A stretch of 64,000 bases of DNA, taken from NCBI GenBank assembly GCA_963816185.1, contig CAWFJJ010000001.1:544001-608000 (forward strand). Direction: 5' to 3'. The notes beneath the pieces were generated by a model. The model was not told where the DNA came from. It saw only the letters and a list, made by a program, of their open reading frames with translations, and searched no databases. Shown here in pieces: positions 47,883 through 54,080 of this stretch. The position numbers and the translations under genes are program-made. How positions within the stretch are numbered: position 1 is the first letter of the stretch; each line of letters begins with the position of its first letter. The DNA comes from Thermoanaerobaculia bacterium (GTDB lineage: Bacteria > Acidobacteriota > Thermoanaerobaculia > UBA5066).

Positions 47883-50321
47883 ATGGATGCGGTAACCGTC
47901 AAGGCGCCTGACTCCTCCGTGTCGGTTTCCGACAGCCTCGCGGCGGAAGGCGTGAACCCCGAGACGGGGCTCACGCGCGCGGAAGTGGACGTCCGTCGCA
48001 AGGAGCACGGCTACAACGAGGTGGCCGAGAAGAAGGGGCACCCCGCCCTCAAGTTTCTCGGGAAGTTCTGGGGCGTGTCGGCGTGGATGCTCGAGCTGAT
48101 CATGGTGCTGTCGGCCGTGCTCGGAAACACGTCGGATCTCGCCGTCGTGGGCGCGCTTCTGGTGATCAACGCCATCCTGAGCTTCACGCAGGAGCATCGA
48201 GCTGAAGGCGTGGTCGAAGAGCTGCGGAGACGTCTGCAGGTCCGCGCGCGCGTGCTTCGCGAATCGACCTGGCAGGTCATCCCCTCGCGGGAGCTCGTCC
48301 CCGGCGACATCGTGCGCGTGCGTCCCGGCGACGTCGTCCCGGCCGACGTGAGGCTCCTCACGGGAGCCTTGACCGTGGATCAGTCGGCGCTCACGGGCGA
48401 ATCGAAGGACGCGGACAAGGCGCCGGGTGAGGTCCTTTCGTCGGGCTCCGTCGTCCGCCGGGGGGAAGGCGACGGCGTTGTGACGCTGACGGGAGCGGCC
48501 ACGTCCCTCGGCCGCACGACGGAGCTCGTGCAGCTGGCGCGTCCGAAGCTCCACATCGAAGCAGTCGTGGCCAAGGTGGTCCGGTGGCTCTTCGTCATCC
48601 TGGTCGCGCTGCTGGGTTCGGTGGTCGTGTTGTCTCTGATCCGACGCGTGGCGCTCGTCGAGATGGTACCGCTCGTGCTCGTCCTCCTGATGAGCGCGGT
48701 GCCGGTCGCCCTCCCCGTCATGTTCACGGTCAGCATGGCCGTCGGGTCCAGGGAGCTGGCGAAGCGCGGCGTGCTGGTGACGCGGCTCAGCGCCGCGGAG
48801 GACGCGGCGACGATGGATGTCCTCTGCGTGGACAAGACGGGCACGATCACGATGAACCAGCTGGCCGTCACGGGAGTCATCCCGCTGGAGCGCGCGACGG
48901 AATCCGACGTCCTTGTCGCCGGCGCGCTTGCGTCCCGGGAAGCCAACCAGGACCCGATCGATCTCGCGTTTCTCGCCGCGGCGAAGGAGCGTCGCGTCCT
49001 CGACGGCCGGCCCGCGGCCACGCCCGTCTCCTTCGCGCCGTTCGACGCGAAGAACCGGCGGACGGAAGCCGTCGTCGAGCAGAACGGGCAGCGGCTGCGC
49101 GTGATGAAGGGCGCCGTACGAACCGTCGCCGAGGCCTGCGGACTTCAGCCCCAGGCGATCGAGGCGCTGGAGGCGCGGGTCGGCGACGCGGCGCTGAAGG
49201 GCTTTCGGACGCTGGCGGTCGCACGCGGACCCGAGACGGGCGTTCCCGCGCTGGTCGGCCTCGTGACGCTGTACGACCCGCCCCGGCCGGACGCCGGTCC
49301 GCTCATCGCCGCGCTGCGCGGTCTCGGTGTCTCGGTCAAGATGCTCACCGGCGACGCGCTGGCGGTCGCGGCCGAGATCGCGCGCGGGGTCGGCCTGCCG
49401 AACATCCGGCGCATGGCCGACCTGAAGGCCGCCGGCATGCCGGCCGGAAACGAGTCGGTCGACCTCCTGTCCGGGACCGACGGCTTCGCCGAAGTGTTCC
49501 CCGAGGACAAGTATGTCGTCGTCCAGCACCTGCAGGCCGCCGGTCACGTGACCGGCATGACGGGCGACGGCGTCAACGACGCGCCCGCCCTTCGCCAGGC
49601 CGAGGTGGGCATCGCCGTAAGCACCGCGACCGATGTTGCAAAGGGCGCCGCCAGCGTCGTCCTGACCGACCCGGGCCTGACGAACATCGTGGCGCTCGTC
49701 GAGCAGGGCCGGGTCATCTACCAGCGCGTCCTGACGTGGATCATCAACAAGATCAGCCGGACGATCCTGAAGGCGGCCTTCGTGGCCATCGCGTTCGTGG
49801 TGACCGGCAAGTTCGTGGTGTCCGCCTTCGCGATGCTTCTCCTCGTCTTCATGACGGACTTCGCCAAGGTGTCCCTCGCCACCGATCGCGTGCGGCCGTC
49901 CCCCAAGCCGGAGACCTGGAACATCGGGGGCTTCATCTTCGTGTCCGCGGTGCTGGGAATCGCGATGGTCGGAGAGGCGCTCGGCCTCCTGTGGATCGGC
50001 TGGTCGCGTTTCGGCCTGGGGGCGAACGACCACGCGCTCCATACCTTCAGCTTCCTGACGCTGCTCTACTTCGCGGCTTTCTCCGTCGTGTCCGCGCGCG
50101 AGCGGCGCTGGTTCTGGGCGACGATGCCCAGCAAGACGCTCGCGGCCGCCATCACGGTCGACGTGCTCGCGGGCACGGCCCTGACGCGCGTGGGCCTCCC
50201 GGGGCTCGTCGGATTGCCCTGGTGGCAGACGCTCGCTATCTTCGGTTATGCGGCGGTGGCCTGCCTCCTCGTCAACGATGCCCTCAAGGTTGCGTTGATC
50301 AGATGGCGCGTCCCCGCCTGA
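47883..50321 (+). CDS. Plasma-membrane proton-efflux P-type ATPase (type IIIA)
   Basis: DQSALTGES, PVALP, LCVDKTGTITMNQL, DPID, KGA, FAEVFPEDKY and GMTGDGVNDAPAL. Confidence 0.9.
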   Translation: MDAVTVKAPDSSVSVSDSLAAEGVNPETGLTRAEVDVRRKEHGYNEVAEKKGHPALKFLGKFWGVSAWMLELIMVLSAVLGNTSDLAVVGALLVINAILSFTQEHRAEGVVEELRRRLQVRARVLRESTWQVIPSRELVPGDIVRVRPGDVVPADVRLLTGALTVDQSALTGESKDADKAPGEVLSSGSVVRRGEGDGVVTLTGAATSLGRTTELVQLARPKLHIEAVVAKVVRWLFVILVALLGSVVVLSLIRRVALVEMVPLVLVLLMSAVPVALPVMFTVSMAVGSRELAKRGVLVTRLSAAEDAATMDVLCVDKTGTITMNQLAVTGVIPLERATESDVLVAGALASREANQDPIDLAFLAAAKERRVLDGRPAATPVSFAPFDAKNRRTEAVVEQNGQRLRVMKGAVRTVAEACGLQPQAIEALEARVGDAALKGFRTLAVARGPETGVPALVGLVTLYDPPRPDAGPLIAALRGLGVSVKMLTGDALAVAAEIARGVGLPNIRRMADLKAAGMPAGNESVDLLSGTDGFAEVFPEDKYVVVQHLQAAGHVTGMTGDGVNDAPALRQAEVGIAVSTATDVAKGAASVVLTDPGLTNIVALVEQGRVIYQRVLTWIINKISRTILKAAFVAIAFVVTGKFVVSAFAMLLLVFMTDFAKVSLATDRVRPSPKPETWNIGGFIFVSAVLGIAMVGEALGLLWIGWSRFGLGANDHALHTFSFLTLLYFAAFSVVSARERRWFWATMPSKTLAAAITVDVLAGTALTRVGLPGLVGLPWWQTLAIFGYAAVACLLVNDALKVALIRWRVPA

Positions 50322-50366: not shown

Positions 50367-50891
50367 TCACCTCTCCTTTAGGAGCCGGACGACGTCCCGC
50401 TCGATCGCGGCGAGATCGTCCTCGCCCTCGTGCCGCGCGCGGAGGCGCCCGGCGCGGTCGACGACGAAGGCCACGGGGAGCCCGAGGATGCCGCCCCACG
50501 CCTTCGCGACCTTCTCGTCTCCCAGGGCGAGCCGGTACGTCGTCCCGTACGTGCGACGAAAGTCGCGCACGGGTGCCGGAGATTCGTCGAGAGAGATTCC
50601 GACGACCTCGAGGCCCTGCGTCCGGTACTTCGCATAGAGCCGGACGAAGCCCGGGGCCTGGGAGCGGCACGGTACGCACCACGTCGCCCAGAAATCGACG
50701 ACGACGACCTTCCCGCGCAGCGAGGCGAGGTCGAGGGGCGCCCCGTCGAGGTCGACGAGCGCGAGCGTCGGCGCCGGGCCGCCGGGCTTCGGCGCCGACG
50801 CATCCACGCCGCGCGTGGCGGCCGCGAGGAGAACCGCAAGGGCCGCTGCGCCGATCAGGAGCCCACGCGTGCGGGCCGCCTTCTCACCCAC
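50367..50891 (-). CDS. TlpA/ResA-like thiol-disulfide oxidoreductase
   Basis: N-terminal anchor, DFWATWCVPC and GLP. Confidence 0.9.
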   Translation of the reverse strand: MGEKAARTRGLLIGAAALAVLLAAATRGVDASAPKPGGPAPTLALVDLDGAPLDLASLRGKVVVVDFWATWCVPCRSQAPGFVRLYAKYRTQGLEVVGISLDESPAPVRDFRRTYGTTYRLALGDEKVAKAWGGILGLPVAFVVDRAGRLRARHEGEDDLAAIERDVVRLLKER

Positions 50892-51417
50892 GGCTGGCTT
50901 CGGACGGGTAGCCCTTCTGGACCCAGTCCCGGCCGAAGTTCTTCGCGATGTAGAGGACCCTCACGCGCGTGAAGCCCGCCGCCTGCAGCATCGTCCACGG
51001 CTTCTCGAGGTTCGGGCAGCGCTCCCAGGGGCAGCAGCCGCAGTAAAGGACGATCGGGGTCGTCCTGGGGAGCGCCGCGACGGCTTTCCGAAGCGCGTCC
51101 ACCGCCGACGGGTCCATGCCTGGCCCCGCGTACCGCGACCCTGGGATGTGCGCCTGGGTGTAGAGGACGCGGAATCCGACGTGGAACATCACTGGCTTCT
51201 CGGCGCCTGGGGTCTGCAGGAGTTTCGCGAGCTCTTCCGGAGACGTCCGTTCCGCGTTCGGCCAGGAAGGGACGAGTTTCGCGGCCGGGACCGGCTCCTC
51301 GGAGCGCGCGCGGCCCGCCGGGAGGGACGCGAGCAGCGCGCCGAGGATCAGCAGCGCGCCGGTGCCCGCAACGTGGTGGCGCCGGCGGCCCGGGAGGGGA
51401 GAGAGAGTCGTGGTCAT
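50884..51417 (-). CDS. Secreted rhodanese-like protein (YCGCCP type)
   Basis: Signal peptide. HIPGS, IVLYCGCCPWERCPN and WVQKGYP. Confidence 0.85.
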   Translation of the reverse strand: MTTTLSPLPGRRRHHVAGTGALLILGALLASLPAGRARSEEPVPAAKLVPSWPNAERTSPEELAKLLQTPGAEKPVMFHVGFRVLYTQAHIPGSRYAGPGMDPSAVDALRKAVAALPRTTPIVLYCGCCPWERCPNLEKPWTMLQAAGFTRVRVLYIAKNFGRDWVQKGYPSEASRG

Positions 51418-51465: not shown

Positions 51466-52611
51466 TCAACGCTCGAGGCGGAACTCCCATCCGCAGCTGC
51501 CCTCGGCGCCGGCGTCCGGCGGGCAGTGCAGGCAGCGCGTCGTGATGCGCGGATCGACCGTGCTCGCGAACGTCGAGAACTCGACCTCGCCGACGGGCCG
51601 GCACGGGAAGTCGGGCAGGCCCTTCCGGCGGCGGGTCTCCTGCACCCGGCAGGACGTCATGAAGAACCGCAGGACTGGCCCGTCCCGCTCGATCCGGCTC
51701 GGGTTCACGAAGCTGTACGCGCGGAAGGAGAGCGCCCGCGCGAGGGCGTCGAGGCCGCCGTCCTTCGGGATCGCGTACGCCTCCAAGATGCGGCGTGCCT
51801 CGGCCGCAGCGAACCGCCGCCACGCTGCCGCGTCGAGCTCCATCGCTACGTCCATCCCGTGGCGCTCCTCGGCGGCCAGAAACCAGCTGCCGTCATGCGC
51901 GAGCCAGTTCTTCGCGAAGACATCGAGGGCCCTGAAGAGTCCGGCGCGGTCGAGCGCGTCGAACGCCGGCGGCGCCGCGGCGCGCGCAGCGGCCGCGGGG
52001 ATGCGGAAGGCCGCGAAGCGCTCGTGGTGGGCCTCGCCGGCGCCCGTCTCCTCGAGGCCGAGCCCCACGAGGAAACCGCGAGCCCAGTCGAGGGTGGCGG
52101 GGCCCTCCGGGTGCACGCCGCCTTCGGCCGCGAGGACGCGCGCCGCGAAGTCGAAACCCTCGCGAGAGAAGTCCGCGAGAACGAGGACGCCGCCGGACCG
52201 GACGACGCGGACGACCTCTCGGAGGACGGGCGCGCCATCGGCGAGGTGGTGGAGGACGTTGAACGAGACGGCGGCCGCGAACGCGCCGTCCGGGAAGGGA
52301 AGGGCGGCGCCGTCCGCGGGCGTGAAGCGCACGCGCGACTCGAGGCCCGTCCCTTCCGTCAGGGAGGCGGCGACCTCCTGGTCCTCGGCGCTCACGTCCA
52401 CGCTCTCGACCGCGAGACCCCGGCGTGCGAGCTCGCGGGCCATGACGCCCATCCCCGAGCCGAGGTCGAGGACGGGGCCTTCGAGCGGGCCGGCGCCGTC
52501 GAGGACGAGGGCCGCGGCGCGTGCACCGTCGTGTCCGAGGGCGGCGAACGCCTCCTGCCGCTTGAAGAAAGATTCCTTCCGCCGTGCGAGGTCGTCCGGA
52601 GTCGGTGTCAC
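51466..52611 (-). CDS. Class I SAM methyltransferase fused to a Cys-rich DUF6125-like domain
   Basis: Methyltransferase motifs VLDLGSGMG and LPFPDGAF..VLHHL. C-terminal KNWLAHDGSWF...CRVQETRRRKGLPDFPCRPVG...CLHCPPD...CGWEF. Confidence 0.8.
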   Translation of the reverse strand: MTPTPDDLARRKESFFKRQEAFAALGHDGARAAALVLDGAGPLEGPVLDLGSGMGVMARELARRGLAVESVDVSAEDQEVAASLTEGTGLESRVRFTPADGAALPFPDGAFAAAVSFNVLHHLADGAPVLREVVRVVRSGGVLVLADFSREGFDFAARVLAAEGGVHPEGPATLDWARGFLVGLGLEETGAGEAHHERFAAFRIPAAAARAAAPPAFDALDRAGLFRALDVFAKNWLAHDGSWFLAAEERHGMDVAMELDAAAWRRFAAAEARRILEAYAIPKDGGLDALARALSFRAYSFVNPSRIERDGPVLRFFMTSCRVQETRRRKGLPDFPCRPVGEVEFSTFASTVDPRITTRCLHCPPDAGAEGSCGWEFRLER

Positions 52612-52793
52612 GCGTCCGTTTCCTTCCTCGTCTCAGGCGAGTCCGTCTTCGTCCGGGTCGAGCAGCTCGTCCCGCCGCCGGCGGGACCTCTCGCCCCTCA
52701 CGTCGGGACACCGAGGCGCGGGAAGACGAACTTCTGGAGGAGAATCCACACGAGGAGCGCGCCCCACAGCCACGCGGCGTCGGCGCTCATCAT
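52608..52793 (-). CDS. Putative 61-aa membrane selenoprotein (UGA at codon 32)
   Basis: SD GGAG. Reads MMSADAAWLWGALLVWILLQKFVFPRLGVPT-UGA-GARGPAGGGTSCSTRTKTDSPETRKETDA. The final stop overlaps the next gene's GTG, and a hairpin follows the UGA. Confidence 0.6.
52669..52687 (-). promoter_or_regulatory. Candidate SECIS hairpin GUCCCGCC-GGC-GGCGGGAC
   Basis: Perfect 8-bp stem 10 nt after the in-frame UGA (52700-52698). The loop starts with G. Confidence 0.55.
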
Positions 52794-52831
52794 CGGCTCC
52801 GGGCGCCCGCGCGGGCGCGGCTCAACGCGGT

Positions 52832-52862
52832 CATGAATTACAATATAATCATTAAGTTATAG
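52832..52862. promoter_or_regulatory. AT-rich divergent promoter/operator with an ATAA-N8-TTAT palindrome
   Basis: CATGAATTACAATATAATCATTAAGTTATAG in a very GC-rich context. The palindrome spans 52845-52860. Confidence 0.55.
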
Positions 52863-54080
52863 ATGGTCAACTCCCCGGACCGCCGCCGCTCCCTCCTCTT
52901 CGCGTCGCCCGTCCTCGCGGCCCTGCCGATCGCGGCGGCGCTCGTCGGCGTCGCGCTTGTGGCGGCGAGCTCCCTCCGGGCGCGGGACGCGGCCGTGCGC
53001 GACGGGCTCCTTGCCCGCGCGGGTCACGAACTCGAGGCCCGGCTTCGGAACGACGGTCCCGAAGGCGCACCGCGGGCCCTCGGGGAGTTCCTGACCGCCA
53101 ACGCGACCCTCGTAAGGGGGGTCGAGGTGGTCGGACCTTCGGGGACGGCGGAACGCCGCGGCGAGACCGAGGGGACGCCGGTCGAGATGCCCGCGATGCT
53201 GGGCCCGGGCTGGCGGCCCGCCGGAGGCGGCGCGATGCCCGGCCTCGGCCTCCCGGAAGGCCATCGGGGCTCCGGCCGCGGTCCTTACACGCTCCGCTTC
53301 TATCCGGCCCGCGGCGCCGGAGCCGAGGGCGGCCTCGCGCTCGCTCTCGTCCTCGGGTCGGCTGCGGCGGGCGCAGGCCTCGTCGTCCTGTCGCTCGTGG
53401 CGGCGCGCGGCCTCGCCGAGCGCGCCCGGCGCGAGCGCCTCGAGGCCGAGCGCGAGCGGCTCGACGCCGTGGCCCTCACGGGCGCCGGCCTCGCCCACCG
53501 GGTCCGCAACCCTCTCGCCGCGATCAAGGGCACCGCGCAGCTCATGGCGGACCGCCCCGGCCAGCAGGTCGCCGAGCGTTCGCGCCGGATCGTCGAGGCG
53601 AGCGCCCGCATCGAGGAGCTCGTGACGCAGATTCTGAGGTTCGCCCGGCCCGTCGAGCCCCAGCCGGAGAGCCTCGACCTCGTCGCGCTCGCGAGCGAGG
53701 CCGCGGATCGCGCGGGCGGGGCCGTGACGGTCTCCGGCCCGCCGGCGGTGCGCGCGTTCGCGGACGGAGGCCACGCGGCCGACGTGCTCGACGAGCTTCT
53801 CGCGAACGCGCGTGCGCACGATCCCGCCGGGACTCTCGAGGTCGCCGCCGGGACGAGCGGCGGCGCGGCCTGGATCGAGGTCCGTGATCGCGGCCCGGGC
53901 CTCTCGGTGGATCCCGCGCATGCCTTCGACCCTTACGTGACGAGCCGGCCTGGCGGAACGGGGCTCGGCCTCCCGACGGTGAGGGCGCTCGCCCGCGCGA
54001 ACGGCGGCGAGGTGACTCTCGACGCGCGCGCGGACGGCGGCTGCGTGGCGCGGCTGAGCCTGCCGCAGAAGCCGGTCTGA
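52863..54080 (+). CDS. Membrane sensor histidine kinase
   Basis: Two TM segments, LAHRVRNPLAAIKG, ELLANA, DRGPG and GGTGLGL. Confidence 0.92.
   Translation: MVNSPDRRRSLLFASPVLAALPIAAALVGVALVAASSLRARDAAVRDGLLARAGHELEARLRNDGPEGAPRALGEFLTANATLVRGVEVVGPSGTAERRGETEGTPVEMPAMLGPGWRPAGGGAMPGLGLPEGHRGSGRGPYTLRFYPARGAGAEGGLALALVLGSAAAGAGLVVLSLVAARGLAERARRERLEAERERLDAVALTGAGLAHRVRNPLAAIKGTAQLMADRPGQQVAERSRRIVEASARIEELVTQILRFARPVEPQPESLDLVALASEAADRAGGAVTVSGPPAVRAFADGGHAADVLDELLANARAHDPAGTLEVAAGTSGGAAWIEVRDRGPGLSVDPAHAFDPYVTSRPGGTGLGLPTVRALARANGGEVTLDARADGGCVARLSLPQKPV

Follow-up and report, generated by a model that had tools for sequence, protein, structure and literature searches.

A conserved in-frame UGA codon and a covarying hairpin point to a new candidate selenoprotein family of bacterial membrane microproteins

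Introduction

Is a UGA codon in the middle of a very short open reading frame (ORF) of a Thermoanaerobaculia bacterium a stop signal, or is it read as selenocysteine (Sec)? The question is raised by a stretch of 64,000 nucleotides (contig CAWFJJ010000001.1 of assembly GCA_963816185.1, positions 544,001 to 608,000), hereafter the window. On its minus strand, at 52793–52608, a membrane microprotein with an in-frame UGA and a hairpin resembling a selenocysteine insertion sequence (SECIS) had been proposed, from the letters alone, as a candidate for a new selenoprotein. This original prediction described the locus accurately. The ORF is indeed missing from the ORF track, as its 31 amino acids fall below the default minimum of 60 (it appears at a minimum of 25 amino acids). 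It has a Shine–Dalgarno-like GGAG and an ATG, one hydrophobic helix, and the residues PRLGVPT immediately before the UGA; 29 further codons, including one for Cys, stay open up to a second stop that overlaps the GTG start of a methyltransferase gene. A perfect 8-bp hairpin begins 10 nt past the UGA, with a G at +19 opening its loop (for coordinates, see Table 1).

We find that this ORF is very probably a genuine selenoprotein gene, the predicted product being a single-pass membrane microprotein of approximately 60 residues with Sec directly past the helix. This interpretation is supported by the conservation of the UGA, a covarying hairpin of the SECIS type, homologues with Cys in place of Sec, a coding signature past the UGA, and the Sec machinery of the genome.

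Conservation of the UGA codon within the order

Orthologues from the same genus were located via the methyltransferase gene. In 16 of the 17 loci found in this way the peptide is present with 80–97% identity, the TGA being retained in all 16, and the first part of the ORF carries many synonymous changes. When the read-through protein was compared with the order's 175 genomes in six frames, 67 of them gave matches; the weak match in genome G005 was left out, and 66 loci from 64 genomes were analysed. The ORF and the TGA are present in all 66, with the motif ahead of the TGA found in its first form in 60 loci, as a PRFG variant in four, and as a PWFG variant in two. In nearly all of these loci the start codon lies 29–30 codons ahead of the TGA. 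Four weak matches (L119–L122) had no TGA; they also lack the family motif and were dropped as spurious.

The first stop is invariably TGA, while the second one varies, being TGA in 53, TAG in five, and TAA in two of 60 order-level loci. Moreover, residues immediately past the first TGA are retained across genera: the tail starts with [AG]-V-P-x-P-A-G-G-R-S-C in one family and with A-V-P-x-P-R-R-S-A in another. The Val and Pro positions of this segment are encoded by several synonymous codons, e.g., CCC (32), CCG (14), and CCT (3) for the Pro at +3, and CCG (29) and CCC (26) for the Pro at +5. The length of the open frame and the tail indels in multiples of three were also considered as coding evidence and set aside as weak, given the GC-rich sequence, the close kinship of the genomes, and a 4-nt indel near the end.

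An open frame arising by chance in GC-rich intergenic DNA and combined with a chance palindrome would be easy to obtain, as in a single sequence of 70% G+C neither an ORF of 31 codons nor a GC hairpin of 8 bp is hard to find. The comparative data already contradict it, and we regard its probability as practically negligible: 64 genomes of the order and many phyla share the peptide, at identities between 97% and about 30%, with synonymous substitutions and a constant distance to the start codon, and a profile search described below yields more than a thousand further matches.

Several additional sequences cover the locus. A gene call in ENA (P0002, 92% identical to the window's protein) has “C” at the Sec position, a letter that reads the same for a Cys codon and for a recoded U, and it was not used as evidence. 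Contigs of relatives that are 90–95% alike, from one metatranscriptome and from DNA runs, span 52617–52796, with the TGA at 52698–52700 and the hairpin unchanged; the metatranscriptome contigs show neither translation nor, strictly, transcription, and no inference was drawn from them. No sequencing run was found that contains at least half of the sampled words of the sequence.

A SECIS-type hairpin past the UGA

In the published model of bacterial SECIS (bSECIS) elements, a stem of 4–16 bp closes a loop of 3–9 nt, the minimum free energy is at most –7.5 kcal/mol, one of the first two loop nucleotides is a G, in most cases with G or U after it, and the distance from the UGA to the loop is 16–37 nt (PMC13188914). 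The hairpin of the window agrees with every constraint of this model, having the loop GGC, a stem of 8 bp, a spacing of 18 nt, and an energy of –14.9 kcal/mol. This energy corresponds to z = –3.6, none of 200 shuffled sequences folding as well. A longer fold of 46 nt has –26.1 kcal/mol (z = –2.5), with a weaker lower stem extending the hairpin to about 52700–52659.

Within the genus, the hairpin is nearly invariant in nucleotides, with the stem GUCCCGCC/GGCGGGAC; the only changes are in the loop and at one stem position, where a U-A pair becomes U-G. Elsewhere the stem is formed by other sequences, such as UCCGGCC/GGCCGGA, CCCGUCC/GGACGGG, CCCCUC/GAGGGG, and CCGCGCC/GGCGCGG (the last one with the loop GGUC). 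In an alignment of 45 sequences, 95.6% of cells are paired, compared to 83.9% in shuffled alignments, and changes on both sides of a pair are observed in 30 cells, compared to 9.6 expected, affecting four of the eight pairs; none of 500 shuffles reached either value. When the pairing scheme is slid along the same 45 sequences, only 31–64% of cells pair.

The presence of the hairpin was then scored by a rule simplified relative to bSECISearch (the stem had to have at least 5 bp, the loop to begin between +14 and +26, and one of its first two nucleotides to be G). By this rule it is found in 135 of 144 distinct Sec forms, that is, in all 64 order-level forms and in 71 of the 80 forms from other phyla among the matches listed, and in just 18 of 60 forms with Cys at the aligned position. 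Loops of the Sec forms are AGGU, GGUC, GGC, GGA, or GGU, while those of the Cys forms are scattered in position and sequence. Hence the hairpin tracks the UGA, rather than the protein or the intergenic junction.

This bears on the possibility that translation simply ends at the UGA, yielding a membrane microprotein of 30 residues, and that the hairpin between the two genes has a different role in the RNA, e.g., in stabilisation, processing, protein binding, or attenuation. In favour of this possibility, GC-rich genomes use TGA more often than any other stop codon, and GC-rich hairpins past a TGA are not rare; still, an intergenic element is not expected to vanish together with the UGA, as happens in the Cys forms. 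Neither is the hairpin a likely terminator or attenuator: the region 52550–52950 contains no terminator-like sites, and the hairpin is followed by GAGCUGCUCG, which is not a U-run. Comparison with Rfam yielded nothing relevant, only six noise matches with E ≥ 1.3.

The geometry is that of the bacterial recoding by SelB and SECIS, exemplified by the E. coli fdhF element: the stem-loop lies in the coding sequence directly past the UGA, with a small loop that starts with G followed by G or U and begins 17–20 nt past the UGA. The differences are that the host gene here encodes a microprotein in about 60 codons, one third of the protein being accounted for by the SECIS and the residues encoded in it, and that the element has no matching Rfam family.

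Sec forms in other phyla and the partner cysteine

For the survey of other phyla, genomes (one per species) were scanned with a DNA pattern for L-Q-x-x-h-[LF]-P-[RK]-[LF]-G-[VI]-[PSAT]-T, with TGA, TGY, TGG, TAA, TAG, or TAY allowed as the next codon. At least 119 stretches were found, and 80 loci among the matches listed were examined, four of which duplicate order-level genomes. Although the pattern permitted other codons, all these 80 listed loci have TGA. Homologues with UAA or UAG at this position, which the original prediction had named as an observation that would speak against it, are therefore absent from the 66 order-level loci as well as from the 80 listed ones, each of which has TGA. 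According to the record labels, the lineages are Desulfobacterales and other Thermodesulfobacteriota, relatives of Geobacter, Nitrospirota, several classes of Acidobacteriota, Planctomycetota, Chloroflexia, Polyangiales, Spirochaetes, Armatimonadota, and Eiseniibacteriota.

In most forms from other phyla the Sec codon is followed by x4-C, e.g., M-[RK]-[DN]-[SA]-C-Q-V. This Cys at +5 is present in 50 of the 80 listed loci, encoded by TGC in 27 and by TGT in 23; where it is absent, the C-terminus or its vicinity often has a Cys instead. Taken together, Cys occurs in 134 of 142 distinct tails, compared to 31–58 of 142 in the other two reading frames. The respective numbers are 58 of 62 vs. 11–20 of 62 at the order level, and 76 of 80 vs. 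31–38 of 80 in other phyla (matches listed). The hallmark of the family is T-[U/C]-x4-C, taking in the lineage of the window the form U-x10-12-C, with the partner Cys 12–13 residues past Sec.

A distinct variant is seen in five loci labelled as Nitrospirota (L130, L189, L199, L204, and L154), where the tails are just 14–16 residues long and end in Cys or have it next to the C-terminus (KKKC, KKDC). They constitute a variant of the family with Sec and a C-terminal Cys.

Cysteine homologues and the extent of the family

A profile of 25 Sec forms was searched against 1.84 billion representative proteins (clusters at 50% identity), yielding 1,535 matches at E ≤ 1e-3, which include a few false ones caused by low complexity, e.g., one protein of 1,918 amino acids. 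We classified 153 proteins, comprising the 150 best profile matches and three from other searches, by what they have at the Sec position. In 80 of them the sequence terminates precisely with the T that precedes the TGA, while 47 have C and ten have W there; the W reflects gene calls in which TGA is translated as Trp.

The Cys forms were also sought at the nucleotide level, by scanning metagenome contigs for G-[VI]-P-T-TGY-M-S-G-x-TGY. Out of 89 stretches found, 80 were examined, and 68 of these listed loci are members of the family with TGC or TGT at the aligned position. They share the start distance, the helix, and the motif with the Sec forms, and continue with T-C-M-S-G-x-C and a hydrophilic tail of 19–66 residues. 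The profiles of the Sec and Cys forms align with probability of 99.5% and E = 1.3e-22 (hhalign), the Sec column falling on an invariant Cys. Thus both kinds of homologues that the original prediction had suggested looking for, with UGA and with Cys at this position, exist, and in both conservation continues downstream.

These data bear further on the ordinary-stop reading. The 80 classified proteins ending at the T, among them one called so at NCBI (P0003), and the poor conservation of the tail beyond about 12 residues are what one would see if translation stopped there. On the contrary, the homologues with a Cys codon pass through the position into C-x4-C and a tail, the residues after the UGA are preserved by synonymous codons, Cys is retained in 134 of the 142 tails, and all 146 of 146 loci have TGA as the first stop while the second varies. 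Together with the loss of the hairpin in Cys forms and the lack of a U-tract and of an Rfam match, this leaves an ordinary stop as a very improbable explanation.

The selenoprotein reading, if confirmed, would imply a widespread family, with 1,535 clusters at 50% identity and, by record labels, roughly ten phylum-level groups, whose members standard annotation cuts at 29–31 residues or misses. It would be a concrete case of how size cut-offs and gene calling that stops at UGA lead to undercounted selenoproteomes. The Sec and Cys forms would also make a natural pair of variants for asking what selenium contributes to a juxtamembrane thiol pair.

Selenocysteine machinery of the genome

As the original prediction had pointed out, the window itself contains no sel genes. 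They are found elsewhere in the same genome, and the absence of Sec machinery, which had been named there as a second counterargument, does not apply, as the machinery is complete: selA (431.6 bits), selB (289.8 bits, or 321.1 bits with a neighbouring piece, above the cut-off), selD (339.8 bits), and two tRNA-Sec genes with the anticodon TCA. The selD gene (locus L010, contig C8 of genome G000, about 373999–374967) has an in-frame TGA of its own (SSAG-TGA-ACKLG) and behind it a hairpin of 9 bp, whose loop GUC is at +18, a geometry like that of the hairpin in the small ORF.

The order as a whole uses Sec, selA being present in 156 of 175 genomes, and therefore absence of the ORF from relatives lacking Sec offers no discriminating contrast. 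This tally, as well as those of the six-frame matches and of the loci found via the methyltransferase, includes four genomes flagged as unpublished (G025, G030, G089, and G112); the 66 small-ORF loci all belong to other genomes.

Both tRNA-Sec genes score 60.5 bits in Rfam and are situated on separate contigs, C14 (L015) and C24 (L016). The two copies could be a real duplication, or a duplicate due to assembly or contamination (the contamination estimate of the genome is 3.4%).

Proposed mechanism and points against it

In the mechanism that we propose, the ribosome would arrive at the UGA at 52700–52698, and the hairpin 10 nt downstream would serve as a bacterial SECIS recruiting SelB with Sec-tRNA(Sec), so that selenocysteine is inserted. 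Translation would then run through 29 further codons to the TGA overlapping the start of the next gene. The predicted product has a short acidic N-terminus outside the membrane, one transmembrane helix, the conserved juxtamembrane LP[RK]LGVPT-U, and a basic, hydrophilic, probably disordered cytoplasmic tail with the partner Cys.

The overlap with the next gene suggests another role, in which selenium-dependent read-through of a leader-like microprotein mainly brings ribosomes to the start of that gene, the tail itself being of minor importance; this does not exclude the ORF being a selenoprotein gene. It is consistent with the GTGA overlap of the read-through stop and the methyltransferase start, also seen in 13 of 16 same-genus loci, with the ORF for an extracytoplasmic function (ECF) sigma factor that in Desulfobacterales-type loci starts inside the tail, about 40 nt past the UGA, and with the weak constraint on the tail sequence. 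Stop/start overlaps, however, are common in operons, sensing of selenium in this manner is impossible for the Cys forms, which are numerous and built alike, the partner Cys and the residues just past Sec are conserved at the protein level, and the next gene varies, being the methyltransferase in 21 of 66 order-level loci and a DUF302, ECF sigma, OsmC, or DUF2892 gene elsewhere. We consider such a predominantly regulatory role unlikely. Also unlikely is a selenium-sensing translational switch, in which ribosomes would read through the tail only if Sec-tRNA(Sec) and SelB are available, and would then reach or unmask the overlapping start of the next gene. If so, the selenium status would gate methylation or a stress regulon (via the methyltransferase-DUF6125 gene here, and ECF sigma in Desulfobacterales), and the Sec recoding would be regulatory, not catalytic.

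Returning to the selenoprotein reading, several observations weigh against it. All support is comparative, and both the incorporation of selenium and translation past the UGA are inferred. Related genomes are not independent, hence raw counts overstate the support. The pattern of the genome scan favours the LQ../LP[RK] subtype and, more generally, the DNA patterns of the genome and metagenome scans select subtypes of the family, while the alignment of the Sec and Cys profiles (probability of 99.5%) is favoured by the Sec profile being written with C for U. The tail beyond about 12 residues shows poor conservation, low complexity, and many indels; at 70% G+C, 29 open codons in a row are ordinary; and in three same-genus genomes a 4-nt deletion displaces the read-through stop with respect to the next gene's start. 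The U..C pair is not universal, as eight of 142 tails lack Cys, and nine of the 80 listed Sec forms from other phyla failed the simplified hairpin rule. Finally, out of 103,306 TGA triplets in the genome, 487 (0.47%) precede a SECIS-like hairpin of at least 8 bp, and 1.2% precede one of at least 7 bp. As chance hairpins and open frames are common in this GC-rich genome, the case beyond chance rests on the comparative data.

Novelty and comparison with known proteins

Neither Pfam-A 2025 nor NCBIfam release 20 has any model matching above noise (E ≤ 1) the 31-residue form, the 62-residue read-through form, or ten Sec and Cys relatives, and the neighbours in the ESM Atlas, along with source and cluster names, are called only “hypothetical protein.” In the full-text literature search we did not find a description of the family; the supplementary tables of selenoprotein papers were outside the scope of this search, and it may be listed there.

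Single-pass membrane selenoproteins with a disordered cytosolic tail that bears Sec are known in eukaryotes, namely SELENOK and SELENOS. The likeness consists in one transmembrane helix followed by a disordered Sec-bearing tail; unlike the present family, they have Sec near the C-terminus and the SECIS in the 3′ untranslated region, whereas the bacterial family has Sec next to the membrane and its SECIS within the coding sequence, and no homology is expected. Among bacterial proteins, the mercury transport proteins of the MerE/MerF type are small membrane proteins with Cys motifs encoded in metal operons. These, as well as the PP0621 family (NF041023), resemble our family in being small and membrane-anchored, in having a Cys pair, and in occurring beside metal- or thiol-responsive regulators. 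In the library scan of the window's protein and the ten relatives, the MerE, MerF, and MerT models gave no match, and NF041023 matched one Cys-form relative with E = 0.074 and 13.3 bits, below its cut-off of 45.

The table of 119 prokaryotic selenoprotein families in the catalogue of May 2026 contains no small transmembrane protein with T-U-x4-C (PMC13188914). The nine new families of deep-Sep (PMC12013277) all have NCBIfam or Pfam identifiers in the same table. Four families of the catalogue are comparable in being short, with a Sec motif, Cys homologues, and no assigned function, and, like the present one, predicted by comparative genomics alone: NF041197 (“Dual CXXC motif small protein”), NF033934 (“KCU-star/DUF466”), PF13798 (“CYCXC family”), and NF047643 (“TsoY”) (PMC13188914). 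They differ in that their models match neither the window's protein nor the ten relatives; the motif here is T-U-x4-C, directly past a transmembrane helix. With respect to that table and to the Pfam and NCBIfam models, the protein is new, as had been claimed: as far as tested, it very probably represents a new selenoprotein family with Cys homologues and the standard bacterial recoding machinery. If confirmed, it would be an unusually small selenoprotein and, relative to the catalogue's table (PMC13188914), the first bacterial selenoprotein with the build of a single-pass membrane microprotein.

Gene layout at the locus

Features of the locus are listed in Table 1. The ORF has two ATG codons, at 52793 and 52790; relatives keep the second one, and the first part comprises 30–31 codons depending on the start chosen, being 31 residues long from the first ATG. 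The short acidic N-terminus is followed by one hydrophobic helix (the maximum of Kyte–Doolittle hydropathy over 19 residues is 1.71, at residues 5–23) and by the motif LLQKFVFPRLGVPT.

Table 1. Coordinates of the predicted selenoprotein gene and adjacent features in the window
Feature	Coordinates	Strand	Evidence and remarks
Sigma-70-like promoter: TTGACC, 17-nt spacer, TATATT	52842..52870	–	10 of 12 consensus matches; one site, compared to a mean of 0.0 in shuffles
Shine–Dalgarno-like GGAG	52797..52800	–	6 nt ahead of the conserved ATG; purine run of GGAG/GGGG type there in relatives
Predicted selenoprotein gene, first part: hydrophobic helix and motif LLQ..v[FL]P[RK]LGVPT	52701..52793	–	80–97% identity in 16 same-genus loci
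In-frame TGA, putative Sec codon	52698..52700	–	Residue 32 (counting from the first ATG) or 31 (from the conserved one); TGA in 66 of 66 order-level loci and in all 80 listed loci of other phyla, TGC or TGT in Cys homologues
SECIS-type hairpin, 8-bp stem (52687–52680/52676–52669), loop GGC at 52679–52677	52669..52687	–	10 nt past the TGA; folding and covariation
Read-through tail, 29 codons: G-A-R-G-P-A-G-G-G-T-S-C, then a hydrophilic part rich in T/R/K/E/D	52611..52697	–	Conceptual translation
Codon of the partner Cys (TGC)	52662..52664	–	In the tail
Second TGA, putative true stop of the selenoprotein	52608..52610	–	Overlaps the GTG of the next gene (52611–52609) as GTGA
Gene for S-adenosylmethionine-dependent methyltransferase domain and DUF6125, 381 amino acids	51466..52611	–	Methyltransf_11, 9.1e-20; DUF6125, 2.3e-58
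Rhodanese-domain protein, co-oriented	50884..51417	–	Rhodanese, 5.9e-06
AhpC/TSA-Redoxin (TlpA-like) protein, co-oriented	50367..50891	–	AhpC-TSA, 5.5e-23; Redoxin, 6.5e-21

The promoter is a putative one, predicted by its match to the consensus. It belongs to an AT-rich stretch of about 30 nt (52830–52870, minus strand) within surroundings of 70% G+C, which also contains a TAAT..ATTA near-palindrome and may be an operator. In the same-genus alignment this promoter stretch is kept in the genomes sharing the upstream context, that is, where a divergent histidine kinase/NtrC pair sits upstream. In six of the 16 same-genus loci (L054, L055, L057, and three more) there is no promoter region ahead of the small ORF; its start overlaps, as ATGA, the stop of a gene for a pyridoxal phosphate (PLP)-dependent enzyme of Cys/Met metabolism (PF01053, 7.6e-151, tested in L054).

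The association with the methyltransferase-DUF6125 gene is not constant, as this gene lies downstream in just 21 of the 66 order-level loci. Two of its orthologues, L034 (genome G013) and L037 (genome G010), have one in-frame TGA each; a frameshift, gene splitting, and a further Sec codon are all conceivable explanations. A P-type cation ATPase gene (47883–50321, plus strand; E1-E2_ATPase, 5.6e-42) converges on the operon-like row beginning with the small ORF.

Gene neighbourhoods and possible function

We counted co-oriented neighbours of the Sec forms from other phyla, the Cys forms, and the order-level forms (given below in this order). An ECF sigma factor with a soluble anti-sigma factor of the zf-HC2 (ZAS) type is a neighbour in 16 of 80, 42 of 68, and 12 of 66 loci, respectively, and DUF2892, a transmembrane domain like that of YgaP, in 6/80, 32/68, and 17/66. 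For DUF302 the counts are 12/80, 7/68, and 26/66; for regulators of the ArsR family, 11/80, 1/68, and 22/66; and for transporters of the resistance-nodulation-division (RND) type, 5/80, 5/68, and 17/66. Thioredoxin, OsmC, a P-II-like protein, and the PLP enzyme of Cys/Met metabolism were confirmed in single loci.

The neighbourhoods suggest a common theme of thiol-redox and soft-metal or metalloid stress, on the basis of which we propose a membrane-tethered selenol/thiol site that would be redox-active or metal-binding. By the positive-inside rule only, the acidic N-terminus is predicted to be outside and the basic tail in the cytoplasm, in which case the selenol/thiol pair would lie on the cytoplasmic side. 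That this pair serves there under thiol, oxidative, or metal stress, being active in redox reactions or binding soft metals, is a tentative assignment, possible rather than probable; it relies on neighbourhoods that are variable, and the counts are lower bounds (many contigs are short, and genes were clustered by blastp at 1e-8). Once assigned, the function of the small protein could help to assign the neighbouring domains of unknown function.

Two arrangements recur. In several genera (L083, L089, L096, L077, and others), the small ORF and the ArsR gene ahead of it overlap at their start and stop codons, with a DUF302 gene downstream and genes for an RND transporter and a P-II-like protein upstream. 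In loci labelled as Desulfobacterales (L157, L165, L198, and L143), the ECF sigma ORF starts about 40 nt past the Sec codon, inside the tail and in another frame (Sigma70_r2 and r4 were tested in L157), and the zf-HC2 anti-sigma gene comes next.

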